Below, piece by piece: positions 1,802-14,250 of a stretch of 20,125 nt of DNA (position 1 is its first letter; each line of letters starts with the position of its first letter). Below the pieces are notes generated by a model. The model searched no databases. It was not told the DNA's origin and saw only the letters and a list, made by a program, of their open reading frames with translations. Source of the stretch: Desulfohalobiaceae bacterium (GTDB lineage Bacteria; Desulfobacterota; Desulfovibrionia; Desulfovibrionales; Desulfothermaceae). Made by a program: the position numbers and the translations under genes. Where the stretch lies: NCBI GenBank assembly GCA_021737615.1, contig JAIPDR010000053.1, forward strand, positions 1-20,125. Direction: 5' to 3'.

Positions 1802-1846
1802 CCTTTAGGCACTTTAGTTCATTTATCAACTTGAGGCACTTCTTCT
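1802..1846. repeat. Arm of the AAGTGCCTAAAGT hairpin-element family overlapping the 3' end of the PAS kinase gene
   Basis: cctttaggcactttagttcatttatcaacttgaggcacttcttc aligns with the right arm of the element at 15917-15967. Positions 1827-1844 are the exact reverse complement of 6339-6356 (18 nt). The arm encodes EEVPQVDK plus the stop codon. Confidence 0.85.
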
Positions 1847-4800
1847 CTCCCGTCCAGCACCTCCCTCACTTTTCCGGCGATACCTTCCCGCTGAAAGGGT
1901 TTCATGAGTACGGCCCGGATCCCCTTTTCCTTGAGATTCTCCCTGGTAATCCGTTCGCTGAATCCAGTGCAGATGATCACGGGTAGATCCGGCCGGATGG
2001 CCAGCAACCGCAGGGTCAAGTCCTCCCCGGTCATCTGCGGCATGTCCATGTCGGTGATAACCAGATCAAAGGCTTCCGGGTCTGCGGCAAAGACCTCCAG
2101 GGCCTCGAGACTCCCGGTTCGGGCCTCGACCCGATAACCGAGGCCCTCGAGCATCCGCCTGCCGATTCGGACAATGGAGGGTTCGTCGTCCACCAGGAGA
2201 ATACGTTCGGTTCCGGCCTGGAGGGAGGCTTCCGGTTTGGATCGAGGGCCTTCTTCCGCCTCGAGTGCCGGCAGGTAAACCCGAAAGGTCGAGCCCCGGC
2301 CCGGCTCGCTATAGACCGAGATCATGCCTCCGTGCTCCTTGACAATGCCATAGGCCGTGGACAGGCCCAAACCGGTGCCCTTGTGTTTGTCCTTGGTGGT
2401 AAAGAAAGGTTCGAAGATCCGCTGCCTGACCTCCGGCGACATGCCGGGGCCGGTATCGCTGACGGTCAGACGAAGATATTCGCCCGGCTCCATATCGGCA
2501 TCCCGCTTTGTGAATCCTGCATCCAGGTCCGTGACCGAGAGTCCAATCTCAAGAACACCCCCGGTCTCGGCCATGGCCTGGGCCGCGTTGGTGCAGAGAT
2601 TCATCAAGACCTGATGCAGCTGGGAGGGATCACCGGAAACCAAGGGCAGATTCCCCTGAATTTCCCGGCGAATCTCAATGCCGGCCGACAGCGTGGCCTG
2701 GAGCATCTTCACGCTTTCTTTGACCAGGGCCTGGAGTTCCACTGGTTCTTTGTCTCCTTTTTGTTTTCGACTGAAAGCCAAGATCCGCTGCACCAGATCC
2801 GCAGCCCGGTTTCCGGCTTTGAGGATCTCATGCAGATCCCGATGAACCGGGCTGCCCGGTTTGGCCTCCGCAGCGGCCAGCTGGGCCGTGCCAATGATTG
2901 CGGTCAAAATATTGTTGAAATCATGAGCGATACCCCCGGCCAGGGTGCCGATGGCCTCCATTTTCTGGGCCTGCAGAAGTTTGACTTCCAGGTCCTGTTT
3001 CTCCTGTTCAGCCATTTTCCAGTCCGTGATATCACGGGCCAGGCCCTGTACACCCAGGACCTTGCCCAGAGCGTCTTTGCGCAGGGCGGCATTGGTGGAG
3101 ACCCAGACCAGGGAGCCGTCCCGGGCGGGCATTTCCGCCTGAAAATCCTTGAGTTCCCCGGTTTCTTGCAGCGCCGCCAGAAGATCCTCCCGCTGCTCAG
3201 GAATGCGGTAAAATCGAGACATTTGCTCGCCCAGAACCTCTTCCGGGGCATAGCCCAGGATATCCCTAACCGACGGAGAAATAACCGTGATGCGGCCCTT
3301 AGCGTCCGTACGGTAAAAAATGTCCGTGATACTGTAAAAAATATCCTGATATTCCTGCCGGCTTTGCCGCAGAGATCGTTCCATGTCTTTGCGCCGGCTG
3401 ATGTCCTGAACCATGACCTGCACGGCCGGCTGGCCCTCGTAGCTCAGGGCCGTGGCCATGACCTCGACGTCGATGGCCTGCCCGTCCAGGCGGACATAAC
3501 GGTCTTCCACCGGATAGAGACCGGTCTCCCCGGCCAGCATGCGCCGGATTCTGTCCCTTGCCGCGTCCCAATTGTCCGGGTGAATGATCTCCTTGATCGG
3601 CTTGCCCATAAGCTCTTCCGGGGAAGCGGCCCCGATGATCTCCGCCCCGGCCTGATTGCTGAAAACCACCCGTCCCCCGGCATGCACGCAGATCCCCACC
3701 GGCGAGACCTCGATCAGGTTGCGGTAGCGGGCCTCACTCTCCTGGAGCAATTGCTCGGCCTTTTTCAAGCTGCTGATATCGGTGTGGGTGCCGACCACCC
3801 GGACCGCCTTTCCCTGCTCATCATACGAAAAAACCTTGCCCCGGCCCAGGATCCACTTCCAGTGCCCGGATTTCGTCTCCAGCCTGAACTCTTTTTCAAA
3901 AGGCTCGGATTTCTGTGCAATGTGCTCAAGAATGCCTGCCTCGACACCTGCTCTGTCCTCCGGATGCAAAAGACCGGCCCAGGTCTCGTAGCTCTGGGGC
4001 AGCTCATAAGGCGTATAGCCGAGCATGGTGAAATAGCGAGGACTGAAATAGACCTCCCCGGTCCGGACATTCCAGTCCCAGAGGCCGTCATTACTGGCTT
4101 CCAGGGCAAAGGTGAGGCGCTCTTCACTTTTTTTCAGGGCCTCTTCCATGTCAATTTTTTCAGTGACATCCTCGGCCACCTTCACGAAATGAGTGATCGA
4201 GCCGTCTTCAGCAAACATGGGTGAGATGGAGGCCTGCTCCCAATAGAACTTATCATTTTTTTTCCGGTTAGAGAACATCCCCCGCCACTCCCGCCCTGAG
4301 AGCAGGGCCTCAAGCATTTCTTCAGCCTCTTTCTCCGATTGTTCACCCAATTCCATGGCCTTCCGGCCCAGAATCTCTGCGGCGGTATAGCCAGTTATTT
4401 GCTCAAACTTGGGATTCACGTACTCAATGTTGCCTTCACCATCGGTGATCATGACGATGTTCGGGCTTTGTTCGACGGCAGCGGACAATTTTCGAATTTC
4501 TCTCTCCGCCTCCTTGCGCCTGGCCAGCTCCGCCTCCAGGTCCTGCATCTTCTTTTCCAGCTTCTGTACCAAGCGCTGGCTGTAGAGTTTGTAGGTCTCT
4601 TCTTCTGCTCGCTGAGCCGGCTGACCCGGCTCAAGGCCTCGGGCCTCGGCTTCCTCCATCACCGCCTGGACTGCCTTGAGGAAATCGTTCGGCTGCATCG
4701 GCTTGCGCAGGAAGCGGTCCGCCCCCAGCTTAAGGGCAAAAGTCTCGTCCTTGTCGTCCACATACGTGGCCGTGTAAAAGATGAAAGGAATGTTTCGCAG

Positions 4801-5013
4801 GGCCTCGTTGCCCTTGCAGTGCTTGCAGAGCTGGAATCCGTCCATGACCGGCATGAGGATGTCGGCAATGATCAGGTCAAAGGGCTCGGCCTGGAGTTTG
4901 TCCAGGGCTTCCTGGCCGTTTGCAGCCGTGACGGTCTCATACCCCTTGGCCTGGAACATGGTCTGGAGCAGGTAGAGGTTTTCCAGCTTGTCGTCGACGA
5001 TGAGGGCCTTCAT
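1819..5013 (-). CDS. Hybrid sensor histidine kinase: REC - coiled coil - 4 PAS - HisKA - HATPase_c - REC
   Basis: 1064-aa ORF. ATG 5013 follows GGAGAG. The N-terminal receiver has VDD...DLIIADILMP. Four PAS-like blocks follow. The H-box is IAHDFNNILTAI and the HATPase G-boxes are DTGPGM and GTGLGLS. The C-terminal receiver has LLVDDE...DLVITDMDMP...LMKP. Confidence 0.92.
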   Translation of the reverse strand: MKALIVDDKLENLYLLQTMFQAKGYETVTAANGQEALDKLQAEPFDLIIADILMPVMDGFQLCKHCKGNEALRNIPFIFYTATYVDDKDETFALKLGADRFLRKPMQPNDFLKAVQAVMEEAEARGLEPGQPAQRAEEETYKLYSQRLVQKLEKKMQDLEAELARRKEAEREIRKLSAAVEQSPNIVMITDGEGNIEYVNPKFEQITGYTAAEILGRKAMELGEQSEKEAEEMLEALLSGREWRGMFSNRKKNDKFYWEQASISPMFAEDGSITHFVKVAEDVTEKIDMEEALKKSEERLTFALEASNDGLWDWNVRTGEVYFSPRYFTMLGYTPYELPQSYETWAGLLHPEDRAGVEAGILEHIAQKSEPFEKEFRLETKSGHWKWILGRGKVFSYDEQGKAVRVVGTHTDISSLKKAEQLLQESEARYRNLIEVSPVGICVHAGGRVVFSNQAGAEIIGAASPEELMGKPIKEIIHPDNWDAARDRIRRMLAGETGLYPVEDRYVRLDGQAIDVEVMATALSYEGQPAVQVMVQDISRRKDMERSLRQSRQEYQDIFYSITDIFYRTDAKGRITVISPSVRDILGYAPEEVLGEQMSRFYRIPEQREDLLAALQETGELKDFQAEMPARDGSLVWVSTNAALRKDALGKVLGVQGLARDITDWKMAEQEKQDLEVKLLQAQKMEAIGTLAGGIAHDFNNILTAIIGTAQLAAAEAKPGSPVHRDLHEILKAGNRAADLVQRILAFSRKQKGDKEPVELQALVKESVKMLQATLSAGIEIRREIQGNLPLVSGDPSQLHQVLMNLCTNAAQAMAETGGVLEIGLSVTDLDAGFTKRDADMEPGEYLRLTVSDTGPGMSPEVRQRIFEPFFTTKDKHKGTGLGLSTAYGIVKEHGGMISVYSEPGRGSTFRVYLPALEAEEGPRSKPEASLQAGTERILLVDDEPSIVRIGRRMLEGLGYRVEARTGSLEALEVFAADPEAFDLVITDMDMPQMTGEDLTLRLLAIRPDLPVIICTGFSERITRENLKEKGIRAVLMKPFQREGIAGKVREVLDGREEVPQVDK
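4500..5013. repeat. Copy 1 of a ~514-bp direct duplication (REC + coiled-coil module)
   Basis: Collinear with 5825-6338 at a constant offset of 1325 nt. By eye there are only scattered substitutions, and the stretch 4800-4990 versus 6125-6315 is almost identical. Confidence 0.9.
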
Positions 5014-5027
5014 GCGCTCTCCATATC

Positions 5028-5212
5028 ACATTTTGGATTTTGGATTGCGGACCTTCGGATTTTGGCCTATGCCCCGGCTTCCGTCTAGTAGAGCCTACAG
5101 CTCGAAGAGAAGGATTGCGGATAGATTTCAAGAAGAAAATTTTGGTTTTTTCTCATAATAACCAGCTCTTATTCTTCATCTTAACGATCCAAAATCCGCA
5201 ATCCAAAATCCT
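5028..5212. repeat. Spacer bracketed by inverted heptamer arrays, with a conserved core
   Basis: Arrays are 5028-5065 (acattttggattttggattgcggaccttcggattttgg) and 5186-5212 (gatccaaaatccgcaatccaaaatcc). Positions 5035-5051 are the exact reverse complement of 5195-5211 (17 bp). The right array overlaps the HD-GYP stop (5211-5213) and the left array ends 14 nt from the kinase ATG. Core 5127-5187 is homologous to 9601-9662 and, inverted, to 14058-14118. Confidence 0.9.
5155..5184 (-). promoter_or_regulatory. Sigma-70-like hexamer pair inside the conserved core (speculative)
   Basis: The minus strand reads TTAAGA-18 nt-TATTAT. The equivalent positions in the other copies read TTAAGA-18-TATCTG (9600s, minus strand) and GGAAGA-18-CTATAT (14060s, plus strand). 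There is no experimental support and the 18-nt spacer is suboptimal. Confidence 0.2.
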
Positions 5213-6338
5213 AAAAGCTGCCGGCATCGAAAGAAAAGCCTTTGTCCAGATACAGCCTGAGGCAGGCATCCACTGCTCCTGGATCGTACCTGATGCCCCG
5301 GCCCTGCTCGATCTCCTCCAATGCCTGATCCAAATCCAAGGCCGTACGGTAGGGCCGATGAGAGGTCATGGCCTCGACCACGTCGGCCACGGCCATGATA
5401 CGGGCTTCCAACAAGATATCCTTTTCGGACAGGCCCTGGGGATAACCGGAGCCATCCAGTCGCTCGTGATGCTGGAACACGGTCCGGGCGATGGGCCAGG
5501 GGAAGTCGATGTCCTTCAGGATGTCATAACCCGTCTGGGAATGGTTTTGAATCAGGCTGTATTCCATATCTGACAAGCGGACTGATTTGGATAGGATTTC
5601 CGCAGGCACCGCGATCTTTCCAAGATCGTGGATCATGCCTGCCAGAGAGACTCCCTTTTTCTGTTGTTCAGGAAGGGCCAATTCCCCGGCAATGGCCCGG
5701 GCGAGCCTGGCGACGCGGCTCTGGTGCCCGGATGTATAAGGGTCACGCAATTCGACCATTCTGGCGGTGGCCTTGACTGTTCCCTCCAAGGCCTTCCACA
5801 GTTGGGCATGAGCTTTCTGTAGGTTCTCCTCCGCTTGCTTGCGGCCGGCCAGCTCCACTTCCAGATCCTGCATCTTCTGTTCCAGCTTCTGCACCAAGCG
5901 CTGGCTGTAGAGTTTGTAGGTCTCTTCTTCTGCTCGCTGGGCCGGCTGGCCCGGCTCAAGGCCTCGGGCCTCGGCTTCCTCCATCACCGCCTGGGCTGCC
6001 CCGAGAAAGCCGTTCGGCTGCATGGGCTTGCGCAGGAAGCGGTCCGCACCCAGCTTCAAAGCAAAGGCCTCGTCTTTTTCATCCACATACGTGGCCGTGT
6101 AAAAGATGAAAGGAATGTTTCGCAGGGCCTCGTCGCCCTTGCAGTGCTTGCAGAGCTGAAATCCGTCCATGACCGGCATCAGGATGTCGGCAATGATCAG
6201 GTCAAAGGGCTCGGCCTGGAGTTTGTCCAGGGCTTCCTGGCCGTTTGCAGCCGTGACGGTCTCATACCCCTTGGCCTGGAACATGGTCTGGAGCAGGTAG
6301 AGGTTTTCCGGCTTGTCGTCGACGAGGAGGATTTTCAT
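5211..6338 (-). CDS. Response regulator with HD-GYP domain (RpfG-like c-di-GMP phosphodiesterase)
   Basis: ORF 5211..6377. I place the start at ATG 6338 (MKILLVDDKPENLYLL) because it aligns with the MKALIVDDKLENLYLL start of the paralogous module and GAGG lies 8 nt upstream. The longer ORF starts at a GTG inside a repeat. The HD-GYP motifs HDLGK and HHERLDGSGYPQGL are intact. Confidence 0.9.
   Translation of the reverse strand: MKILLVDDKPENLYLLQTMFQAKGYETVTAANGQEALDKLQAEPFDLIIADILMPVMDGFQLCKHCKGDEALRNIPFIFYTATYVDEKDEAFALKLGADRFLRKPMQPNGFLGAAQAVMEEAEARGLEPGQPAQRAEEETYKLYSQRLVQKLEQKMQDLEVELAGRKQAEENLQKAHAQLWKALEGTVKATARMVELRDPYTSGHQSRVARLARAIAGELALPEQQKKGVSLAGMIHDLGKIAVPAEILSKSVRLSDMEYSLIQNHSQTGYDILKDIDFPWPIARTVFQHHERLDGSGYPQGLSEKDILLEARIMAVADVVEAMTSHRPYRTALDLDQALEEIEQGRGIRYDPGAVDACLRLYLDKGFSFDAGSF
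5825..6338. repeat. Copy 2 of the REC + coiled-coil module duplication
   Basis: See 4500-5013. The protein segments are near-identical from LVDDK through QRLVQKLE.KMQDLE.ELA.RK.AE. Confidence 0.9.
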
Positions 6339-6356
6339 AAGAAGTGCCTCAAGTTG
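6339..6356. repeat. Solo arm of the AAGTGCCTAAAGT family immediately upstream of the HD-GYP start
   Basis: aagaagtgcctcaagttg is the exact reverse complement of 1827-1844. Confidence 0.85.
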
Positions 6357-6368
6357 TTTTACATTGTG

Positions 6369-6695
6369 AATCTCCACATTTTGGATTTTGGATTGCGGAA
6401 TTCAGAGTCATGATTTTGAGACTATTTGCTTTTTCTCGCGGTTTTTATCGAAGATACGATTATTGCGATAATTTCATCGTTTTCTTTCATGAGAGCAGGT
6501 ACCGAGTTCGTTTCAAGAATTTTCATCTCCTCTATGATCTCAAGCCAAAACAATGTTTCATCGGCTTCTTCTTCCACTATGGCCAATTTTGAAATAAAAT
6601 CAGCTACAACACCATCCTCCAATCTTCATTCCCCAATCCCTCAGGGGCTTAGTCCAAAGTCCACTTCCCCAATCCAAAATCCGCAATCCAAAATC
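6369..6695. repeat. Inverted heptamer arrays bracketing the four-helix-bundle gene remnant
   Basis: Arrays are 6369-6399 (aatctccacattttggattttggattgcgga) and 6669-6695 (ccaatccaaaatccgcaatccaaaatc). Positions 6384-6399 are the exact reverse complement of 6680-6695 (16 bp). The right array abuts the receiver stop codon (6694-6696). Confidence 0.9.
6422..6622 (-). pseudogene. C-terminal half of a four-helix-bundle protein (23S rRNA intervening-sequence protein family), N-terminal half missing
   Basis: The 66-aa ORF has a TTG as first codon and no ATG. The sequence ...DFISKLAIVEEEADETLFWLEIIEEMKIL...ENDEIIAIIVSSIKTARKSK matches helices 3-4 of the ~120-aa family (..EA.ET.YWLELL..). Upstream sequence in all frames is heptamer repeat, not helices 1-2. 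Confidence 0.6.
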
Positions 6696-7158
6696 ACAGA
6701 TATCGCCTGACCTCGTCCACAAACGATCCGGTATCAATCGGTTTTTCAATATAGCCGTCACAGCCGGCCGCAAAGGTCTTTTCCCGATCGCCCTTCATGG
6801 CATAGGCGGTCATGGCCACTACAGGCATACGCTTCATTTTGGATTTTGGATCTTGGATTTTGGATTCTTCTTTATTCTGTAATCCGGATTCCAAATTCCG
6901 AATTCGCCTCGTGGCCTCATACCCGTCCAGTTTGGGCAACTGCATATCCATCAGAACCAAATCGGGCTTCTTTTGAATGGCCTTTTGCACGCCCTCCTCT
7001 CCATCCCTGGCCTCCAAGACTTCAAAGCCGGCAATTTCCAGTAGAAATCTGGCCAGATACAAGTTTTTCTCCTCATCCTCAACGATCAAGACCTTCTTAT
7101 TCTGCGGCGAAAAATCAGGATTATAGCCCTTGGTGTTCATCATGCTCCATCCTTTCAT
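6694..7158 (-). CDS. Single-domain CheY-like response regulator with an expanded loop
   Basis: 154-aa ORF with ATG at 7158. Alternative starts at 7143/7140 have a better SD (AAGGATGGAG). REC motifs are VLIVEDEE, DLVLMDMQLP, VVAMTAYAMKGD and YIEKP. The loop between RRIRNLE and PVVAMTA is about twice its usual length (see 6835-6905). Confidence 0.88.
   Translation of the reverse strand: MKGWSMMNTKGYNPDFSPQNKKVLIVEDEEKNLYLARFLLEIAGFEVLEARDGEEGVQKAIQKKPDLVLMDMQLPKLDGYEATRRIRNLESGLQNKEESKIQDPKSKMKRMPVVAMTAYAMKGDREKTFAAGCDGYIEKPIDTGSFVDEVRRYL
6835..6905. repeat. Miniature heptamer element inside the receiver CDS, in frame
   Basis: The minus strand reads cggaatttggaatccggatt-acagaataaagaag-aatccaaaatccaagatccaaaatccaaaatg. 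That is an array, an AGAATAA(A)GA core and an inverse array. It translates as NLESGLQNKEESKIQDPKSKMK. Confidence 0.85.
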
Positions 7159-7222: not shown

Positions 7223-7341
7223 GTAAGTGCCTAAAATTAAGCGTTCTGTGTTTCATCGTTTCCCTATTGTCAATGTCTTCCTCTTCCAATTCTGCCAACT
7301 TTAGACACTTTCGTTCACTTACAAACTTGAGTCACTTCGTC
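7223..7341. repeat. ~119-bp hairpin (MITE-like) element, AAGTGCCTAAAGT family
   Basis: The left arm is gtaagtgcctaaaattaagcg (7223-7243). The right arm is ccaactttagacactttcgttcacttacaaacttgagtcacttcgtc (7295-7341). The right arm contains the last six codons (RSDSSL) and the stop codon (7319-7321) of the upstream kinase. Confidence 0.8.
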
Positions 7342-9454
7342 TCCCTCCTTCTCCCAAAGCCTTTTTGATATCCCGCAACAGATCTTCCCGGCTGGATTGC
7401 TGCTTCTGGATGATATTCTCGATCTTGCTGTTGAGCCAGGCCACTTCTTCCTGGGTCAACTTTTTACCGGAAACAATAATAATCGGGATATGCTTGGTGG
7501 GTTCTTCCTGTTTCAACCTGCCGATGACCTCAAAGCCGTCCACCTCCGGCATCATCAAGTCCAGGATGATCAGATCCGGGGCCTGCTCCGAGACCCTGTC
7601 CAGCCCCTCCTGCCCGCCATAGGCCTTTCTGACCCTGTAGCCGTTGATCTCTTCCAGGTATCTGGACAAGAGCTCCACGGCCCGGGCATCATCGTCCACG
7701 ATCAGGATATCGAAGATAGGCCGCATTTTCTTGAGCCGATCCAGCTCCCGGGTCAACCGGTCCTTGTCGATCGGTTTGACCAGGTATTCCACGGCTCCGA
7801 GGGAGAGGCCCAGCTCCCGGTTGTCCAGGATGGAGATGCAGATAACCGGAATGTTTTCGGTTTCAGGATCGTTTTTGAGTTCTTCCAGGATGTCCCAGCC
7901 ATCCCGGCCGGGCATGACGATATCCAGGGTCACGGCGAAGGGTTTGAATTTCCGGGCCAGCTGCAGGGCCTCCAGACCGTTGTAGGCCTGGATGACTTCA
8001 TAACCTTCGGCCTGGAGGTAGGTTGTAAGGATCTCCTGGGCCTCCAGCTCGTCGTCGATGGTCAGGATCAATTTCCTGGTCTGATCCAGGGTTTCAGGAG
8101 AGACAGCAGGCGGCCTGGCAGCCGGACCGGCCTCCTGGACGGGAATGTTGAAAAAAAAGCAGGAGCCCTGGCCATATTCGCTGTTCACCCCAATGGACCC
8201 GCCCATCATCTCCACCATTTTCTTGCAGATGGCCAGGCCCAGTCCTGTGCCCCCGGGTTTTTCCTTAAGCGGACCGTCGATCTGCTTGAATTCGTCAAAG
8301 ACCTCCTCCAGGTGCTCGGGCCGGATGCCCAGACCGGTGTCGGACACGCTGAAGCGGATCAGGGCCGGGCCGGCCGGTTCCACCCTCAGCTCTATCCGGC
8401 CGGAGCTGGTAAATTTTACGGCGTTGGACAGCATGTTGATCAAGACCTGCTTGATGCGGTTCTTGTCATTGTACAAGCCGGAGGGGACACCATCGGCTAC
8501 ATTCACAAAAAAATTTAAACCCTTATCCTGAACCAGGGGAGAGAACATGCCCTGGACCGTGTCAACAAGGCTTTGGACATCGAATTCAGCAGGCTGGATC
8601 TCGATCTTGCCGGCCTCGATCTTGGACAGGTCCAGGACGTCGTTGATCAGGCCCAAGAGGTGCTGGGCGCTGCCGTAGACCATGTTCAGCTGTTTTTTTT
8701 GTTCCGCATTGAGCTCGCCCGCCAATCCCTCGAGGATGATGCCGCTGAAGCCGATTATGGAGTTCAGGGGCGAGCGCAGTTCGTGGCTCATATTGGCCAT
8801 AAACTGGGACTTGAGCCGGCCGGCCTCTTCCAGGCGCTGGTTGGCCTTTTCCAGCTCCTGTTTCTTTTCCTTGAGTTCCGTGTTGACCCGGGTCAACTCT
8901 TCCTGACCGGCCCGCAGTTCATCCAGGGCCTGCAACAGGTCCTGGTTTTGCTGCTGGACTTCTGCAAACGCGGACCTGGGTCCCCCGGCTGCCAGCCCGG
9001 AGGTGAGGCGCTGGATATCTGCAGGGCCCCAAGGTTCCCGGCCCTCGGGAAGGGCCTTTCCCATGAGCACGCGGGTGCCCTGGCCCGGCCTGGAATCGAT
9101 CTCAAAATGGTCCATGAGCCGCCTGGCCCCGGCAAGGCCGATGCCCAGCCCGCTTTTGGAGGCATAGCCTTGCTTTAAGACGGCCTCCAGATCGGCAATC
9201 CCGGGGCCTTGGTCCTCGAAAGACATGCACAGCATCTGCGGCGAGGCCTCCAGGTCCAACTGGAAATCCAGCTTGCCGTCCCCGGCGTACTGGTAAACAT
9301 TGCGGGCCAGCTCGGACACAGCCGTGGTGATCCGGGTCTGATCCTGGGAGGTAAAGCCGATCAATCCGGCGATCTCCCTGGAGCGCTGCCTGGACAGAAT
9401 CACGTCGTCCTCGAAACGGATCTGAATGCTGAGGATCTTTGTTGGCATCTTCAT
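7319..9454 (-). CDS. Hybrid histidine kinase with N-terminal RsbT-like GHKL domain: RsbT-like - coiled coil - HisKA - HATPase_c - REC - REC
   Basis: ORF 7319..9562. Candidate ATG starts are 9454, 9448, or the repeat-encoded in-frame ATG 9493. The N-terminal domain reads QTRITTAVSELARNVYQYAGDGKL...DQGPGI...SGLGIGLAGARRLMDHFEIDSRPGQGTRV, which resembles RsbT as I recall it from B. subtilis. It is followed by MSHELRSPLNSI (H-box), the HATPase N/G boxes, and two receivers (LDIVMPGRDG and LDLMMPEVDG). Confidence 0.88.
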   Translation of the reverse strand: MKMPTKILSIQIRFEDDVILSRQRSREIAGLIGFTSQDQTRITTAVSELARNVYQYAGDGKLDFQLDLEASPQMLCMSFEDQGPGIADLEAVLKQGYASKSGLGIGLAGARRLMDHFEIDSRPGQGTRVLMGKALPEGREPWGPADIQRLTSGLAAGGPRSAFAEVQQQNQDLLQALDELRAGQEELTRVNTELKEKKQELEKANQRLEEAGRLKSQFMANMSHELRSPLNSIIGFSGIILEGLAGELNAEQKKQLNMVYGSAQHLLGLINDVLDLSKIEAGKIEIQPAEFDVQSLVDTVQGMFSPLVQDKGLNFFVNVADGVPSGLYNDKNRIKQVLINMLSNAVKFTSSGRIELRVEPAGPALIRFSVSDTGLGIRPEHLEEVFDEFKQIDGPLKEKPGGTGLGLAICKKMVEMMGGSIGVNSEYGQGSCFFFNIPVQEAGPAARPPAVSPETLDQTRKLILTIDDELEAQEILTTYLQAEGYEVIQAYNGLEALQLARKFKPFAVTLDIVMPGRDGWDILEELKNDPETENIPVICISILDNRELGLSLGAVEYLVKPIDKDRLTRELDRLKKMRPIFDILIVDDDARAVELLSRYLEEINGYRVRKAYGGQEGLDRVSEQAPDLIILDLMMPEVDGFEVIGRLKQEEPTKHIPIIIVSGKKLTQEEVAWLNSKIENIIQKQQSSREDLLRDIKKALGEGGRRSDSSL
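7361..8850. repeat. Copy 1 of a ~1.5-kb duplicated transmitter module (HisKA-HATPase-REC-REC)
   Basis: Collinear with 15983-17480 at an offset of 8622-8631 nt with a few small indels. Long identical nucleotide runs occur, for example ctcgatcttgccggcctcgatcttggacaggtccaggacgtc. The protein segments are roughly 85% identical by eye. Confidence 0.9.
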
Positions 9455-9691
9455 ATTGCGGATCTTCCGATTTTTGATTTTGGATCTCCACATTTTGGAT
9501 TTTGGATTGCGGAATGCTGATTGCGGATTTTCCGATTTTTCCCGCTTTATGTCGCTTCCCAACTTTAGTCACTTCTTCGCTCTGCAATATTCACTATAGG
9601 CTTTAAGAAAAAGTTTTTGGATTTATGCCAGATAACCAACTCTTATTCTTTGTCTTAACAATCGAAAATCCAAAATCCAAAATCTAAAATT
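9455..9691. repeat. Spacer bracketed by inverted heptamer arrays, with a conserved core
   Basis: Arrays are 9455-9541 and 9659-9691. Positions 9492-9508 (attttggattttggatt) are the exact reverse complement of 9667-9683 (17 bp). Core 9601-9662 is homologous to 5127-5187. The spacer also carries a solo AAGTG-family arm at 9558-9580 (cccaactttagtcacttcttcgc). Confidence 0.9.
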
Positions 9692-9700
9692 CTATAGTCA

Positions 9701-10750
9701 CTATTCAATCACCCGCCCCACCACCACGGTCAGATCATCGTCCCGTTGGTAGTCGCGGTACAGAACGCCGGCGATCAGCGCAGGGTGCCTGGTCACGAGT
9801 CCGGGGTAAGGGTCCAGACTCCAGCCTGTCTTCAAGCCATCGGAATGCATGACCAGCAAGGGAGGGGAGCCGCCTTCTCTCTCCGGCCAGGGAGTGACGT
9901 AGACCCGGCTGAGCTCCTGGCGGCGCCCCACAATTCCATACCGGGAGACCAGGTGCCGGTTCTGGCTTCCGGAGAGGAGGCAGGCGGAGATGTTTCCCAA
10001 CCCGACAAAACGGACTTCCCGCTTCTGCCTGTCCATTTCCGCAACTGCAGCGGCCGCTCCCCGGGTGCCCCGCAGCCCTGCCTGCATACGCTGCATCATG
10101 TCCTGCAGGTCCAGGCCCGGGTTGGCCTGAAAAATTCGTCTGAGCTCCAGAGAGGCCTCGGCCGCTCCAGGACCATGCCCCAGTCCGTCCGCCACCAAAA
10201 CGGCCCAGCCGTTGGGGCGAGGCTGGAGGGCCCAGTTGTCCCCGCAGACGCTCTGGCCCGGCTTGGGCAGGCAGATCCCGGCCACCTCGAACCCGGGGGC
10301 TGAAGGCTTGGCCAGACCGCCTTTCGGCCGGAGGCAGGCCATGAGCACGGTCCCCTGGTCCGGGAGGGAATGGATATCAAACTGGGAACTCAAACGGCGC
10401 ATGGCCCCGAGACCGGTTCCCGGGCTGCCTGTGCTGGAAAAGCCGTCCTGGAGACATTGTCCCACATTCTGCATCCCCGGTCCCTTGTCAATAGCCACGA
10501 TCCGCAGGCCGGACATTTGGCCCAGCTGGACCGTATCCAGGAGCAGCTCCCCGGACCGGGCGTGTTTGAGCAGGTTGGTCCCGGCCTCGGTGACCACGAT
10601 GGCTGTTTTGCCGGTTTGATCCTCACTGAAGCCCAGCTTGCGGGCCAGGTTCACGGCCTTCCGCCGCACTTCGGCGATCCGGCTTTGCTCGGTAACGGAA
10701 AAGGCCAGGCTGCAGCCCGGGCTTTCCTGAGGTATTGAATATGGTCTCAT
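9701..10750 (-). CDS. Fusion of GHKL Ser-kinase-like domain (HATPase_c_2, RsbW/RsbT-like) and PP2C/SpoIIE phosphatase (RsbX/RsbU role)
   Basis: ORF 9701..10804. I place the start at ATG 10750 (MRPYSIPQE), which forms an ATGA overlap with the rsbT stop (10747-10749). Kinase-like motifs are VTEAGTNLLKHA, DKGPGM and GSPGTGLGAMRR. PP2C motifs are VCGDNW, VADGLGHGPGAA, MHSDGL and DDDLTVVV. Confidence 0.85.
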   Translation of the reverse strand: MRPYSIPQESPGCSLAFSVTEQSRIAEVRRKAVNLARKLGFSEDQTGKTAIVVTEAGTNLLKHARSGELLLDTVQLGQMSGLRIVAIDKGPGMQNVGQCLQDGFSSTGSPGTGLGAMRRLSSQFDIHSLPDQGTVLMACLRPKGGLAKPSAPGFEVAGICLPKPGQSVCGDNWALQPRPNGWAVLVADGLGHGPGAAEASLELRRIFQANPGLDLQDMMQRMQAGLRGTRGAAAAVAEMDRQKREVRFVGLGNISACLLSGSQNRHLVSRYGIVGRRQELSRVYVTPWPEREGGSPPLLVMHSDGLKTGWSLDPYPGLVTRHPALIAGVLYRDYQRDDDLTVVVGRVIE

Positions 10751-11157
10751 TTCCACATGATCATGCATACCCGGGTCCCTTGTCCTGCTTGGGATTCTAT
10801 CCAAAATTCATCCACCAGCCTTTTGCTGCCGGGCAGGCCCAGACCCAGGCCCTTGTTCGTGCTGTACCCTTTTTGCATGGCCAGCTGCACATCCTTCAGA
10901 CCCGGCCCTGTATCCGTAAATATCAGGCGCAGACCGAAACGGACTGCATTGTCCACGGCCTCCAGGAGCGCCTTCCCCTCCCGGCCGTATCGAGCCGTAT
11001 TGCGGGCGATCTCACTGGCCGCCGTGACCAGCTTGGTCTGCAGGATCAACGAAAACCCGAACTCCTTTGCCCATTCGCGGACGACCCGCCTGACCCGGGC
11101 CACATCCTGATCAGTGCGGACCGGCAAGGTTTCATGCTTCCGTACGGTCAGGGACAC
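10747..11157 (-). CDS. rsbT: RsbT-like serine kinase / switch protein
   Basis: This lies in ORF 10747..11313. The likely start is GTG 11157 (GGAGAAGG just upstream), overlapping the rsbS 3' end by 26 nt. The ~136-aa sequence includes ...AASEIARNTARYG...DTGPGL...KGLGLGLPGSKRLVDEFWIESQAGQGTRV, a single GHKL domain of RsbT size. The start codon is uncertain. Confidence 0.8.
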   Translation of the reverse strand: MSLTVRKHETLPVRTDQDVARVRRVVREWAKEFGFSLILQTKLVTAASEIARNTARYGREGKALLEAVDNAVRFGLRLIFTDTGPGLKDVQLAMQKGYSTNKGLGLGLPGSKRLVDEFWIESQAGQGTRVCMIMWK

Positions 11158-11533
11158 GGCCCTTCTCCCGGGAAGACGATCCCAGCCTCTTGGCAAGCAG
11201 GGCCATGCCTTTGTCCACATCCAGGGCGGTCCGGATGCCTTTGATGGCCAGGCCCAGCTCGACAATGGTGATGGCCACCTCCGGCTGCATACCCACCAGG
11301 ACCGTTTCCGCATCCAGAAGGCCGGCCGTGGCCGCCATGTCTCCCAGGGTGCGGCCCATGAAGGAATCGATCATCTGCAGGGCTGAGATGTCGATCAATA
11401 CCCCCCTGGCCCCGGTTTTTTGAATCTGCTCGGCCAGGTCATCCCGCAGGGCCAGGGCCAAGCGGTCGTGCAAGTCCACTTGAATGATCACCAAAAGAAA
11501 ATTCCCCCACTTGAGGATCGGAATCCGTTCCAT
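11132..11533 (-). CDS. rsbS: RsbS-like single-STAS stressosome scaffold protein
   Basis: This lies in ORF 11132..11626. The start is ATG 11533 (MERIPILKWGNFLLVIIQ), since upstream codons are heptamer repeat. It is a STAS fold with DISALQMIDSFMGRTL, where the Ser sits at the expected phospho-acceptor position. Confidence 0.85.
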   Translation of the reverse strand: MERIPILKWGNFLLVIIQVDLHDRLALALRDDLAEQIQKTGARGVLIDISALQMIDSFMGRTLGDMAATAGLLDAETVLVGMQPEVAITIVELGLAIKGIRTALDVDKGMALLAKRLGSSSREKGRVPDRTEA

Positions 11534-11579
11534 GCTAGCGCCTTTCAGAAGAGGTTTTGATTGACTATTGATTATTTCA

Positions 11580-11650
11580 GCAATCGACAATCCAACATGT
11601 GAAGATCCAAAATCTCCAATCCGCAATCCAAAATCCGCAATCCAAAATCC
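11580..11650. repeat. Unpaired 71-bp heptamer array filling most of the rsbR-rsbS spacer
   Basis: gcaatcgacaatccaacatgtgaagatccaaaatctccaatccgcaatccaaaatccgcaatccaaaatcc starts directly after the rsbR stop codon (11651-11653). I found no complementary array before the rsbS start. Confidence 0.9.
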
Positions 11651-12520
11651 CTAGAATCTGCCCGGCTCCCCCTTGACCACATAACCGCTGCGTTCCAAGG
11701 CCAGGGCAAGCGCATCCGCCAGGGTGGCCTTGGTGGGAATTCCCCCCAGCTCCAGGCCCATGTCCACCATGGACTGGGCGATCATCGGCCGGATCCCGCT
11801 GATGATGCACTCGGCGCCCATGAGACCGGCCGCGGATACGGTCTTGATCAGATGCTGGGCCACCAGGGTGTCCACGGTGGGCACGCCGGTGATATCCATA
11901 ATGGCGATGGTGGATTTGGTTTCCACAATCATCTGCAAAAGGTTTTCCATGACCGTCTGGGTGCGGGCGCTGTCCAGGGTCCCGATCAGGGGGACCGCCA
12001 GGACCCCGTGCCAGAGCTGGACCACAGGCGTGGACAGCTCCATGATCTCCTCCTGCTGGCGCCGGATGACCTGTTCCCGGTGCTGAATAGAAGCTTCGGT
12101 GGTATACAGGCCCAGCTTGTCCAGCAGCCGGGTCGCGGTCCAGATTTCCTGCACCAGTTCCTCTGGATTCTCGGCCAGAAGGCTCTGGAGGAGGTACATC
12201 AGGGGCTGTTTAAAGGAAAAGATACAGGTGGCCACCTCCGAGGGGGTAAAGCCTTTTTCCCCCCGGGTGCGGGAGATCCTGGACAGCATGTCCCTGACTT
12301 CTTTCCAGGCTTCAGCGCTTGTATCAACGACTCCGCCCGCCTGCAGGGCCGAGCGGAAAAGACTGATAAATTCAGCAGCTTCTTCCCGCAGTGCGGTTTC
12401 ATCAATCAAATCCGGCCGCAAGACGCCGGAACTCAATTGTTCCCGGATCCAGTCCTTCAACAGCTCCTGTTCATACTTTTCAAGTATCTCCGGCAGGCGC
12501 GTTGTCTCTTGATCATTCAT
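11651..12520 (-). CDS. rsbR: RsbR-like stressosome sensor (N-terminal helical sensory domain + C-terminal STAS)
   Basis: 289-aa ORF. ATG 12520 has AGGAGG 7 nt upstream. The C-terminal STAS reads STPVVQLWHGVLAVPLIGTLDSARTQ...IMDITGVPTVDTLVAQHL, with Thr at the RsbR phospho-site position. The N-terminal ~150 aa resemble RsbR-type sensory domains (ILEKYEQELLKDWIREQL). Confidence 0.88.
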   Translation of the reverse strand: MNDQETTRLPEILEKYEQELLKDWIREQLSSGVLRPDLIDETALREEAAEFISLFRSALQAGGVVDTSAEAWKEVRDMLSRISRTRGEKGFTPSEVATCIFSFKQPLMYLLQSLLAENPEELVQEIWTATRLLDKLGLYTTEASIQHREQVIRRQQEEIMELSTPVVQLWHGVLAVPLIGTLDSARTQTVMENLLQMIVETKSTIAIMDITGVPTVDTLVAQHLIKTVSAAGLMGAECIISGIRPMIAQSMVDMGLELGGIPTKATLADALALALERSGYVVKGEPGRF

Positions 12521-12880: not shown

Positions 12881-14020
12881 AAATTCAGAGTAGAGCAGGG
12901 CCTCGCAATCCGGGCAGATGCCGTGGGAAAATGTAGCTTCTGAGTGTTTCTTGATGAAGAATTCGATCTGGTTCCAGTAGCCCTGGTCGTCCCGGATCTT
13001 TTTGCAGTTGGCGCAGATTGGGATGAGCCCTTTCAAGGTCTTGACTTGGACCAGGGCTTCCTGGAGCCGGTTCCGCTCATTGAGAAGCGCAGTCTCAGCC
13101 GCAGTTTTCCGGGCGATTTCCTCCTCCAGGGTCGTATTACGTTCCTTCAATTCTCTGGTTTTGGATCTGACCTGCTGTTTCAAGACCAGGCTGAAGAGAG
13201 CAAACAGACAGCCCAGGCCGACTGCCGCGGCCAATCCGAAAAGCAAAGCCCTGGGCACCTCCCGTTCCACCCGCATGTCGAACCAGTGCTCCAGGGTCTG
13301 GTTGTAGAAGGAATTCCGGTCCTGCTTCAGGACGGAAAGCTGTTGATCAATAGCGGCCGCCAGGTCCTGGTTATGCCCTTTGGGAAAGGCGAATCTGAGT
13401 TCCACCGGGGCCAGGACGATGGGCGTCCGCCTGACCTCGTATTTGTCCTCCTCGGCCAGGCCGTAGAGCCTGCTGATGATCCCGGCCTCCGCCGCTCCCC
13501 GGTCCAGGGCTTGAAAGACTTCTTTGTAACCGCTGCAGAGCACATACTCGCAGGCAATGTTGAACTGCTTGAAGCGTTCAAAGGAGATACCCCCTTGCAT
13601 GACCGCGACTCTTTTGCCCTGAAGCTGCTCGACGTTTTCAATGTCCAATCCTGCGCGGCTGTAAATCCTAGCCCAGTTGGAGAGCACGGTCTCCCGGTTG
13701 AAGTCATACATTTCGGCCCGGTCCCGGCTATAGGCCACATCCACCATGATATCCAGCTTGCCGGCCCGCAGCCGGTCCAGGCACTGCTGCCAGGTCCCGG
13801 GCACATAGTCCAGGTCCCAGCCTTCCTGCCTCGCGATATCCCCCAGAAGATCCACCCAGATTCCGGCGGGCCTGCCGGCCTCATCCAGGTAGACCTTGGG
13901 CTTGTTCTGATAGATGCCCACCCGGACCGTCTCGGCAGCAGACCCTGAAGCCGGGAGCCAGAACAGGAGCAACAGGGCGATGAGCAGCCGTATGAAATTT
14001 TGGATTTTGGATCTCCACAT
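12854..14020 (-). CDS. Membrane sensor: signal peptide - periplasmic SBP_bac_3 (Venus-flytrap) domain - TM - coiled coil - short 4-Cys C-terminal domain
   Basis: ORF 12854..14101 has a TTG as first codon. The likely start is ATG 14020 (MWRSKIQNFIRLLIALLLLFWLPASGSAA, signal-peptide-like). The SBP domain begins VRVGIYQNKPKVYLDEAG...DIMVDVAYSRDRAEMYDF. The TM segment is ALLFGLAAAVGLGCLFALFSLVL. The C-terminus is ICANCKKIRDDQGYWNQIEFFIKKHSEATFSHGICPDCEALLY. Confidence 0.85.
   Translation of the reverse strand: MWRSKIQNFIRLLIALLLLFWLPASGSAAETVRVGIYQNKPKVYLDEAGRPAGIWVDLLGDIARQEGWDLDYVPGTWQQCLDRLRAGKLDIMVDVAYSRDRAEMYDFNRETVLSNWARIYSRAGLDIENVEQLQGKRVAVMQGGISFERFKQFNIACEYVLCSGYKEVFQALDRGAAEAGIISRLYGLAEEDKYEVRRTPIVLAPVELRFAFPKGHNQDLAAAIDQQLSVLKQDRNSFYNQTLEHWFDMRVEREVPRALLFGLAAAVGLGCLFALFSLVLKQQVRSKTRELKERNTTLEEEIARKTAAETALLNERNRLQEALVQVKTLKGLIPICANCKKIRDDQGYWNQIEFFIKKHSEATFSHGICPDCEALLYSEFEEAPQVDK
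13090..13965. repeat. Copy 1 of a ~0.88-kb duplicated sensor module (SBP domain + TM + start of coiled coil)
   Basis: Collinear with 17542-18417 at an offset of 4452 nt. Identical runs of 40-60 nt occur, for example gccaggccgtagagcctgctgatgatcccggcctccgccgctcccc. The protein segments are roughly 85-90% identical by eye. Confidence 0.9.
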
Positions 14021-14247
14021 TTTGGATTTTGGATCTCCACATTTTGGATTTTGGATTAGGAAGACACAGAATAAGAACTGGTCTATATGGAATAAATCCA
14101 ATACCTTTTTCCTAAAGCATCTATCCCTCAGGGCCGGCCTCCAGCTCCGCTACGGGCCGGAGAGTAAAGTATACGCCCTGGAGAAAAGCCAAAATCGACC
14201 CTCTTTCTTTTTCCGCAATCCAAAATCCGCATTCCAAAATCCAAAAT
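13996..14247. repeat. Spacer bracketed by inverted heptamer arrays, with the conserved core in opposite orientation
   Basis: The left array (13996-14057) contains the 22-bp unit attttggattttggatctccac in 2.8 tandem copies (13997-14018, 14019-14040, 14041-14057). The right array is 14212-14247. Positions 14041-14055 are the exact reverse complement of 14233-14247 (15 bp). Core 14058-14118 is homologous to the reverse complement of 9601-9662. Confidence 0.9.
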
Positions 14248-14250
14248 TCT

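Follow-up and report, generated by a model that had tools for sequence, protein, structure and literature searches.

A receiver gene with a heptamer-armed insert

The window analysed here comprises 20,125 nucleotides (positions 1 to 20,125 of contig JAIPDR010000053.1, from a Desulfohalobiaceae bacterium). On its minus strand lies a DivK/CheY-like response-regulator gene in which the connector between helix alpha-3 and strand beta-4 is coded by a small element made of heptamer repeats. We refer to this element, and to its relatives in other receiver genes, as the cassette. The gene and the parts of its insert are as follows.

6694..7158, minus strand: DivK/CheY-like single-domain response-regulator gene (open reading frame (ORF) of 154 aa; Pfam Response_reg)
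6826..6909, minus strand: whole insert tract, codons R84-M111 (28 codons), delimited by anchor lengths, sister-pair DNA alignments and multiple DNA alignment A2
6881..6906, minus strand: 5' arm, cgaattcggaatttggaatccggatt, inverse heptamer units GGAATxx/GGATTxx, coding for R85-L93 (RIRNLESGL), from Tandem Repeats Finder and inverted-repeat pairing
6867..6880, minus strand: core, acagaataaagaag, coding for Q94-E97 and part of E98, from alignment A2
6835..6866, minus strand: 3' arm, aatccaaaatccaagatccaaaatccaaaatg, 4.4 heptamers of (AATCCAA) type, coding for ESKIQDPKSKM, from Tandem Repeats Finder
6826..6834, minus strand: junction codons K109-R110-M111 (aag cgt atg), from comparison with P0005 (NLAHIPVVA) and P0010-type sequences

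The encoded protein has all the attributes of a CheY-like receiver domain of the DivK type: the PF00072 match (6e-25, broken into two stretches), the acidic pocket, the phospho-acceptor Asp, the Thr, the Lys and the fold. The catalytic residues E27, D28, D71, T117 and K139 are intact on both sides of the insert, as a preliminary description of the locus had stated, and they are invariant in protein alignment A1. An AlphaFold 2 (AF2) model, with a mean predicted local distance difference test score (pLDDT) of 86, has an ordinary (beta-alpha)5 receiver fold, and its closest structure in the PDB is DivK (1m5t; 42% identity, E = 4e-12). A public protein, P0001, is 100% identical to the ORF; it is 149 aa long, with its start at 7143, and is annotated 'MAG: response regulator [Desulfohalobiaceae bacterium]'. 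An orthologue, at locus L001, is ~89% identical in the regions flanking the insert, and outside the insert the two genes differ at 28 codons synonymously and at 6 non-synonymously. These counts indicate that the gene is functional and under purifying selection and is no pseudogene; the preliminary description had named pseudogene status as an outcome that would speak against it.

Homologues that lack the insert have 12 codons (RRIKADxxxxKI) at the place of the window's 28, so that the net gain is 16 aa. The anchors LPxxDGxE and [LM]T[AS] could be located in 112 of the best 120 homologues; they lie exactly 18 residues apart in 102 of these and 34 apart in the window, which bears out the estimate that the loop is roughly doubled. 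The translation given earlier, SGLQNKEESKIQDPKSKMK (S91-K109), is correct, and the frame is open through the insert. The placement of an array-core-inverse-array element in frame in the alpha3-beta4 connector was likewise upheld, both by the AF2 model, which puts the insert between alpha-3 and beta-4, and by the split Pfam match. One part of the preliminary description requires revision: RRIRNLE, which had been taken for native helix, is mostly coded by the 5' arm, and twelve native codons have been replaced rather than merely interrupted.

The 5' arm proper, cggaatttggaatccggatt, spans 6900-6881 on the coding strand and is extended by cgaatt to 6906; Tandem Repeats Finder reports here a weaker period-7 tract (6883-6905, score 32). 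The 3' arm is reported as (ATTTTGG)x4.4 (6836-6866, 91% matches, score 55) and has, as was noticed earlier, just two perfect consecutive units. The arms are inverted with respect to one another, 6838-6859 against 6881-6902, over 22 nt that are 73% complementary. In alignment A2 the 14-nt core appears as a shortened remnant of the relatives' core GGAATAAAATCGAAGAAGGCCCTTATTC. The full-cassette core, AATAAAATCGAAGAAGGYCCTTATTC, codes for NKIEEGPYS, of which the window retains only GAATAAA..GAAG (QNKEE), the turn-coding part having been deleted; the core in the L001 orthologue has diverged and is 6 nt shorter still. The insert is continuous in frame with the host ORF and shares its position and its 5' arm with the cassette of L002, and on these alignments the window copy is a truncated derivative of an L002-type cassette rather than a full member. 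The junction codons K109-M111 may be a diverged remnant of the native (A)HI that precedes the conserved P-V-V-A, and 6826..6834 is the span within which the right-hand boundary of the cassette may lie.

The arms belong to a heptamer family of AATCCNN type, with tandem units AATCC(A/G)(A/C), that is abundant in the contig. Allowing up to two mismatches, AATCCAAAATCC has 61 matches in the window where 3.1 are expected, five of them in 6834-6899, and the matches lie nearly always directly 3' of stop codons and 5' of start codons. The 16-mer TCCAAAATCCAAAATG has seven exact copies in the window (0 expected). Six of these are at the ends of intergenic arrays and one is at 6835-6850, where the receiver 3' arm ends in the same terminus as the intergenic arrays do. 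Arrays of AATCCAA, AATCCGC and AATCCGA are free of stop codons in all six frames, and can therefore lengthen ORFs and persist within genes.

Homologous cassettes in other receivers

Homologous inserts were sought among the 120 best homologues, by core scans of GTDB genomes and JGI metagenomes, and by an exhaustive HMMER protein search. Seven of the 120 proteins have an insert at this site and, in all, 14 distinct receiver genes with a homologous insert were found (the window, L001, L002, L004, L006, L007, L008, L012, L014, L017, L019, L021, P0121 and P0122). They come from Desulfobacterota metagenomes, and the position is always the same, after DG[YF]EAT and before IP..A[LM]T. All cassettes start with units of the type ATTCGGAAT[TC][TC/GC]GGAA and finish in AAAATCC-type units. 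The stretch ATTCGGAATTTGGAA of the window's 5' arm is identical in the cassettes of L002, L004, L006, L007, L008 and L012. The full form, in L002 and L004, reads ATTCGGAATTTGGAATGCGGATTGCGGAAT-AAAATCGAAGAAGGCCCTTATTC-AAAATCCGAGATCCGAAATCTAAAATCCAAAATC; the core is shortened in the window and L001. Four of the hosts (L012, L014, P0121 and P0122) are receiver domains of hybrid kinases or other multi-domain proteins with only 35-47% protein identity to the DivK-like group. All the cassettes are in frame except that of L021. Orthologues and close homologues without the insert exist, and every long loop that was found is coded by the same heptamer-armed cassette, none by unrelated codons, in agreement with what the preliminary description anticipated. 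Scans of GTDB species genomes, JGI metagenomes and 1.84 billion protein representatives found the cassette core in receiver genes only. A 24-mer core match in a Chthoniobacterales genome (L015) was rejected as chance: it has neither arms nor a receiver, and by a rough estimate ~0.3-1 such match is expected in 596 Gb.

Several cassettes have been built upon by nested additions. Those of L006 and L014 have an extra 102-nt element within the 3' arm; L008 has both the 102-nt element and a 39-nt GC-rich piece within the 5' arm; L012 has a similar GC-rich piece at the same 5'-arm place without the 102-nt element; and L017 and L019 have another small insert. The 102-nt element (CTGGCCCAGACC...GCCAGGGCAGGCC, with inverted ends) sits after ...AAATCC, starting at ~535 in L006 and at ~1863 in L008. 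At L014 there are two nearly identical copies on the minus strand, one in the cassette 3' arm (near 1701) and one in a direct heptamer array 315 nt downstream (near 1386). It looks like a mini-element that targets heptamer arrays, and in receivers it reads in frame as PGPDLADQDDVMEKEVWEASKSNGISKSTRARAG.

The content of the cassette changes readily. The flanks of L006 and L007 are 94% identical, and the cassettes are wholly different past their common 5' arm, L006 having the full core and the 102-nt element and L007 a short unique core and a 3' array of CAATCGT/CAATCAT (CAATCRT). This contrast indicates that arm and core content turns over much faster than the host gene.

Several lines of evidence indicate that the cassette moves between receiver genes. 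In a neighbour-joining tree of the flanks alone, genes with a cassette are scattered over five separate DivK-like clades, each with close cassette-free neighbours. Sister pairs with and without the cassette for which DNA was available have flanks that are 93% (L002 with, L003 without), 89% (L004 with, L009 without) and 88% (L008 with, L010 without) identical. Between genes, cassette identity is 86-98% where the flanks are 50-63% identical. For L002 and L006 the values are 89% for the cassette (85% at third positions) and 63% for the flanks (34% at third positions), and for L012 and L014 they are 98% (third positions 100%) and 60% (third positions 44%). Cassettes that are so much more alike than their flanks indicate that the cassette is younger than its host genes and has been exchanged between them.

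The sister pairs also bear on the route. Filled alleles lack 36 native nt (RRIKADDRLAKI) that are present in the empty alleles, and no target-site duplication was seen at the cassette in the sister-pair alignments. Because 12 native codons were replaced and no duplication was left, a segment swap by homologous recombination between receiver genes appears the likeliest route and fits better than simple transposition. Few codons of the domain are as strongly conserved as the flanking ones, DG[YF]EAT and IP[VI][VI]A[LM]TA. The sequence of native empty sites is CGGATCA...A[AC]ATCCC, in which the conserved R-I and K/H-I-P codons give rise to a small inverse pair of heptamer cores, and this likeness is a possible reason for the first capture of a heptamer hairpin at that place. 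Junction codons 'KA' and 'RR' were considered as markers of hitch-hiking during conversion and were dropped, since either variant is in register with the heptamers and might belong to the arm.

Fate of the insert and its possible origins

In the AF2 model of the window protein, alpha-3 is lengthened (model residues 75-93) and is followed by a lysine-rich coil of 15 residues (94-108) and by beta-4 (109-113). The full cassette, as modelled in P0003, forms a helix (88-98), a turn (G99-S102) and a second helix (103-114), so the predicted structure is an antiparallel helical hairpin, the protein counterpart of the DNA palindrome. The connectors from alpha helices to beta strands in CheY-like domains lie on the face opposite the phosphorylation site, and the hairpin of the full cassette would project from that face. 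The window copy, without the turn and the return helix, is predicted to have only a longer alpha-3 and a lysine-rich flexible coil; most likely it is neutral or a mild modulator of partner contacts.

Constraint on the cassette differs between its parts. In a comparison of six full-length cassettes, every variable codon of the core GLRNKIEEGPYS varies synonymously (5/5), non-synonymous changes being restricted to the arms and junctions, which indicates that the core of the full-length relatives is constrained at the protein level. The proposal that the element had been domesticated as a surface loop holds in a loose sense: the insert is tolerated and read in frame, and its core is constrained in these relatives, though little of that core is left in the window copy. 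The 39 nt for S99-M111, covering the 3' arm, are identical in the window and L001 where ~4.5 changes are expected from flanks that are ~10% diverged (P ~0.01, an estimate), while the 5' arm and core have strongly diverged and differ by a 6-nt indel.

The reading we prefer, with a probability of roughly 0.7, is that 6826-6909 derives from a palindromic coding cassette, captured in a receiver loop and spread by recombination, of which it is a decayed copy that is still translated. An intergenic heptamer hairpin would once have been captured in a receiver loop, at native CGGATC...AAAATCC, a capture made possible because the heptamers have no stops in any frame; the cassette would then have passed from one receiver gene to another, chiefly by homologous recombination or gene conversion via the conserved flanking codons. 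The central point of the preliminary description, a heptamer element translated as a surface connector, is right, and the observation on which it was founded is real, although the hairpin within the gene is degraded. Its account of origin has to be replaced: the insert is not a local insertion of this genome's intergenic repeat but a decayed member of a cassette common to many divergent receivers, and, being common to the window and L001, it is older than their split.

Several observations weigh against the recombining cassette. Only fragments of the relatives' core remain in the window, so that homology of the core rests on a short alignment, and no donor-recipient pair was found within one genome, the related loci all being short metagenome contigs. 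The case for gene conversion comes entirely from the replacement of native codons and the contrast in identity between cassette and flanks, and strong constraint on the cassette at the nucleotide level could mimic recent transfer. AF2 confidence is low in the insert (block-mean pLDDT ~58-76 for model residues 91-110 of the window protein and 59-88 for residues 91-120 of P0003). Finally, the window hairpin folds at -15.2 kcal/mol (z = -1.4), and 20 of 200 shuffled sequences fold equally well.

Two other origins were considered. An element resembling a miniature inverted-repeat transposable element (MITE) might have inserted independently, with target specificity, in the alpha3-beta4 loop of each receiver by recognising native CGGATY...AAAATCC. 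The same site is filled in non-orthologous receivers, the native sites do bear heptamer-like cores, and small array-targeting elements exist, for example the 102-nt element after ...AAATCC in the L014 cassette arm and in the direct array nearby. We nevertheless consider independent insertion improbable, given the missing native nucleotides and the absence of a target-site duplication, the confinement of the core to receiver genes in the GTDB, JGI and protein-representative scans, and the lack of a transposase partner in the window (the other loci being short contigs). Alternatively, the insert could be an old loop extension, vertically inherited and lost in short-loop homologues, with codons that are merely heptamer-like. 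The event shared by the window and L001 was indeed not recent. However, vertical descent would require many independent and precise losses, each restoring an 18-residue connector with RRIKAD..KIP; synonymous sites in the cassette are 85-100% identical where those of the flanks are saturated at 29-44%; and the 3' terminus is identical to that of the intergenic arrays. On these comparisons vertical inheritance is strongly disfavoured and has, in our estimation, very little chance of being correct.

The remaining alternatives concern function. As the preliminary description pointed out, the unit length of 7 is no multiple of 3, and gain or loss of units could switch the receiver gene ON and OFF. 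In a different gene lineage, at L021 (449-916), a receiver gene with the full cassette lacks exactly two units (14 nt) of the 3' array; the loss shifts the frame, the downstream receiver being otherwise intact in the +1 frame. It may represent an inactivation that took place recently, an OFF variant or a fault of the assembly; it indicates that slippage of heptamer units does occur and is a liability. Unit number also varies between the window and L001 in the intergenic arrays at the same locus. The receiver tract, by contrast, has too few perfect consecutive units for a simple-sequence contingency locus, the window and L001 have the same number of units in it, and its 39-nt stretch is identical in the two genes. 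Interrupted repeat units, here AAGATCC, suppress slippage at simple-sequence-repeat contingency loci. A programmed phase-variation switch in the window tract is not supported and must be rated highly unlikely; what stands of the earlier suggestion is the mutational liability. An equally slight chance attaches to an RNA-level element kept in the mRNA, such as an RNase III substrate or regulatory hairpin, with the peptide as a by-product. The arrays of intergenic members pair into long stems (z = -5.0), the fold of the L002-type cassette is of moderate strength (-23.1 kcal/mol, z = -1.9), and synonymous sites of the cassette are unusually conserved, all of which would suit a functional RNA. But the window hairpin is weak; relative to L001 it shows decay in the 5' arm and no change in the 3' arm, so the pairing of the arms has not been maintained, which counts against an RNA-hairpin function of this copy; and the variation in the core of the relatives, being synonymous only, points to constraint on the protein.

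Heptamer elements of the contig and known systems

Intergenic members of the heptamer family consist of inverse arrays that flank variable cores and fold into long stems. Four were delimited in the window.

5026..5216, minus strand: reference array-core-inverse-array element between the HD-GYP regulator and PAS hybrid kinase genes, from RNA folding
6378..6695, minus strand: heptamer element with inverse arrays at 6378-6394 and 6666-6695 around a truncated ORF, 6422..6622, for a four-helix-bundle protein of the 23S rRNA intervening-sequence (IVS) type (IVP), from Pfam PF05635
9466..9694, minus strand: array-core-inverse-array element upstream of the hybrid kinase gene 7319..9562, from Tandem Repeats Finder and RNA folding
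13997..14249, plus strand: element with the 22-nt unit ATTTTGGATTTTGGATCTCCAC x2.7, a core with ACAGAATAAGAAC and an inverse array at 14212-14249, from Tandem Repeats Finder (score 120)

The element at 5026-5216 folds at -65.3 kcal/mol, its arrays pairing as a ~25-bp stem, and that at 9466-9694 at -51.1 kcal/mol (z = -2.0). The receiver insert has, as the preliminary description claimed, the layout of inverse arrays around a core; its hairpin is weaker, with arms only 73% complementary and z = -1.4 against -5.0 for 5026-5216. Intergenic elements have a core motif next to the array (AAGAATAAGAGnTGGTTAT / ACAGAATAAGAAC); the receiver core ACAGAATAAAGAAG resembles 14069-14081, though only in a short match by eye that includes an indel. 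A conserved sub-core, GTTAAGAnnAAGAATAAGAGnTGGTTAT, adjoins one arm in several intergenic elements (5150-5180 and 9630-9660 on the minus strand, 14060-14085 on the plus strand, and L001 40-62); at 5150-5180 it bears a loose likeness to a sigma-70 -35/-10 pair, and the copy at 14060 points against the flanking genes. The 22-nt unit ATTTTGGATTTTGGATCTCCAC is perfect at 13997-14056 (x2.7), and its complement, GTGGAGATCCAAAATCCAAAAT, is found again, as ...AAAATGTGGAGAT, ahead of several start codons (5029, 6377, 9491) and includes a GGAG Shine-Dalgarno-like motif. The window, L002, L006 and L008 had no Rfam family match at gathering thresholds.

The array of the element at 6378-6695 begins at the receiver stop codon. 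Its ORF (6422..6622) matches PF05635 at 1.4e-5 over profile positions 56-105 only and matches the L002 IVP protein at 3e-15 by tblastn. PF05635 IVP genes between inverse heptamer arrays lie directly downstream of cassette-bearing receivers at L002 (2233-2676), L004 (706-1146) and in the window (6378-6695); the gene is full length at L002 and L004 and truncated in the window, and the cassette-free sisters L003 and L009 have no such element. The IVP genes of L002 and L004 are 77% identical, as diverged as their host genes. The layout of these elements, a stem with an ORF in the loop, mirrors that of rRNA intervening sequences. Joint arrival of the cassette and the downstream IVP element by one recombination was considered and rejected: the 3' flanks follow the sister pairs (92% and 90%), and the IVP genes are 77% identical against 96% for the cassettes.

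Other signalling genes lie in the window. A stressosome-like module at 9701-12520 comprises an RsbRD_N+STAS protein, a STAS protein, an RsbT-like HATPase_c_2 kinase and an HATPase_c_2+SpoIIE phosphatase, and is followed in order by the hybrid kinase, the DivK-like receiver, the HD-GYP response regulator and the PAS hybrid kinase. At L009 the orthologous receiver likewise comes after an RsbRD_N+STAS gene. Short tandem-repeat signatures (GCTGACCCG/GCTGGCCCG, GGCCTCG and CTTGCAGAG) occur in both 4611-4832 and 5936-6157, 1325 nt apart, and indicate a duplicated receiver-coding segment common to genes 1819..5013 and 5211..6377, whose receivers are nearly identical around FQLCKHCKG[ND]EALRNIPFIFYTATY.

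A more far-reaching reading, which we offer tentatively and regard as rather unlikely, is that the cassette is a specialised, self-propagating coding module, a 'loop parasite' of receivers that crosses subfamilies and species of the Desulfobacterota, adds a helical-hairpin antenna opposite the phosphorylation site and serves as a landing pad for array-targeting mini-elements, with arms that are part of a wider, undescribed system of heptamer stems whose full-size members bear IVP genes. If this were true, the intervening sequences of rRNA, the heptamer arrays between genes and the in-frame insertions in proteins would all be forms of a single kind of element, which the IVP protein might help to mobilise or to process. 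The intergenic relatives resemble the intervening sequences of 23S rRNA, being inverted-repeat stems with an IVP (PF05635) ORF in the loop, and the cassette resembles them in being inserted, in scattered lineages, at a single fixed site within highly conserved sequence. They differ in that the elements here lie between protein genes, with one miniature inside a protein gene, and in that the receiver cassette has no ORF of its own.

In the literature we found no description of the AATCC heptamer family, of repeat insertions in receiver loops or of heptamer-flanked IVP genes. Other heptamer direct repeats are known, namely the TAACTGA repeats of marine Beggiatoaceae and cyanobacteria (PMC4679880) and, in Geobacter metallireducens, elements of four heptanucleotides 'within genes as well as between genes' (PMC2700814). 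The family described here shares with such repeats the 7-nt unit, the short tandem arrays near start and stop codons, the occasional intragenic copies and a suspected post-transcriptional role. The cyanobacterial short tandemly repeated repetitive sequences (STRR) are another heptamer repeat family. The unit differs, however, being AATCC[A/G]N, and pairs of inverse arrays form stems around variable cores; also, AATCC arrays are free of stops in six frames, whereas TAACTGA has stops on one strand. MITEs and repetitive extragenic palindromic (REP)-type repeats (BOX, ERIC, Correia; PMC10969869) are likewise small, non-autonomous, hairpin-forming and multicopy, and are occasionally translated in a host ORF. 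The cassette differs from them in having no target-site duplication, no defined terminal inverted repeats that match an insertion sequence and no transposase partner in the window, and in its apparent confinement to one protein domain.

The closest analogue of the cassette is the Rickettsia palindromic elements (RPE), protein-coding palindromic repeats that lie in frame within genes (Ogata et al. 2000, 2002, summarised in PMC10969869). Each is a short stretch of palindromic DNA that is read in frame within functional genes and whose peptide falls where the fold can accommodate it; each occurs in only some of the orthologues; and each has related copies outside genes. With the AF2 models, the intact catalytic residues and the purifying selection, the cassette shares with the RPEs an in-frame palindromic insertion into a working protein, at a surface site that tolerates it. 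It does not have the RPE dispersal: RPEs occur in many unrelated genes and in intergenic sites, whereas the cassette core was found only in receivers, at one connector, and only the heptamer arms are dispersed. Also, the cassette arms are tandem heptamer arrays where an RPE is a unique palindrome, and the cassette replaces native codons and has nested insertions; no similarity in sequence between the two is expected.

To our knowledge, translated selfish palindromes have been documented mainly in Rickettsia, and a comparable phenomenon now appears in free-living relatives of sulfate reducers, confined to one loop of the commonest bacterial signalling domain. Here the evidence is clear that the same piece of DNA has moved between very different receiver genes and has then been built upon by nested insertions, a natural experiment on the ways in which new surface features of two-component signalling proteins arise from repeat DNA. 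The cassette accounts for the odd NPKSKIQ/IRNLE peptides and for the split Pfam matches in the annotation of these genomes. It is also a tractable entry to the undescribed element family of heptamer arrays and four-helix-bundle genes.

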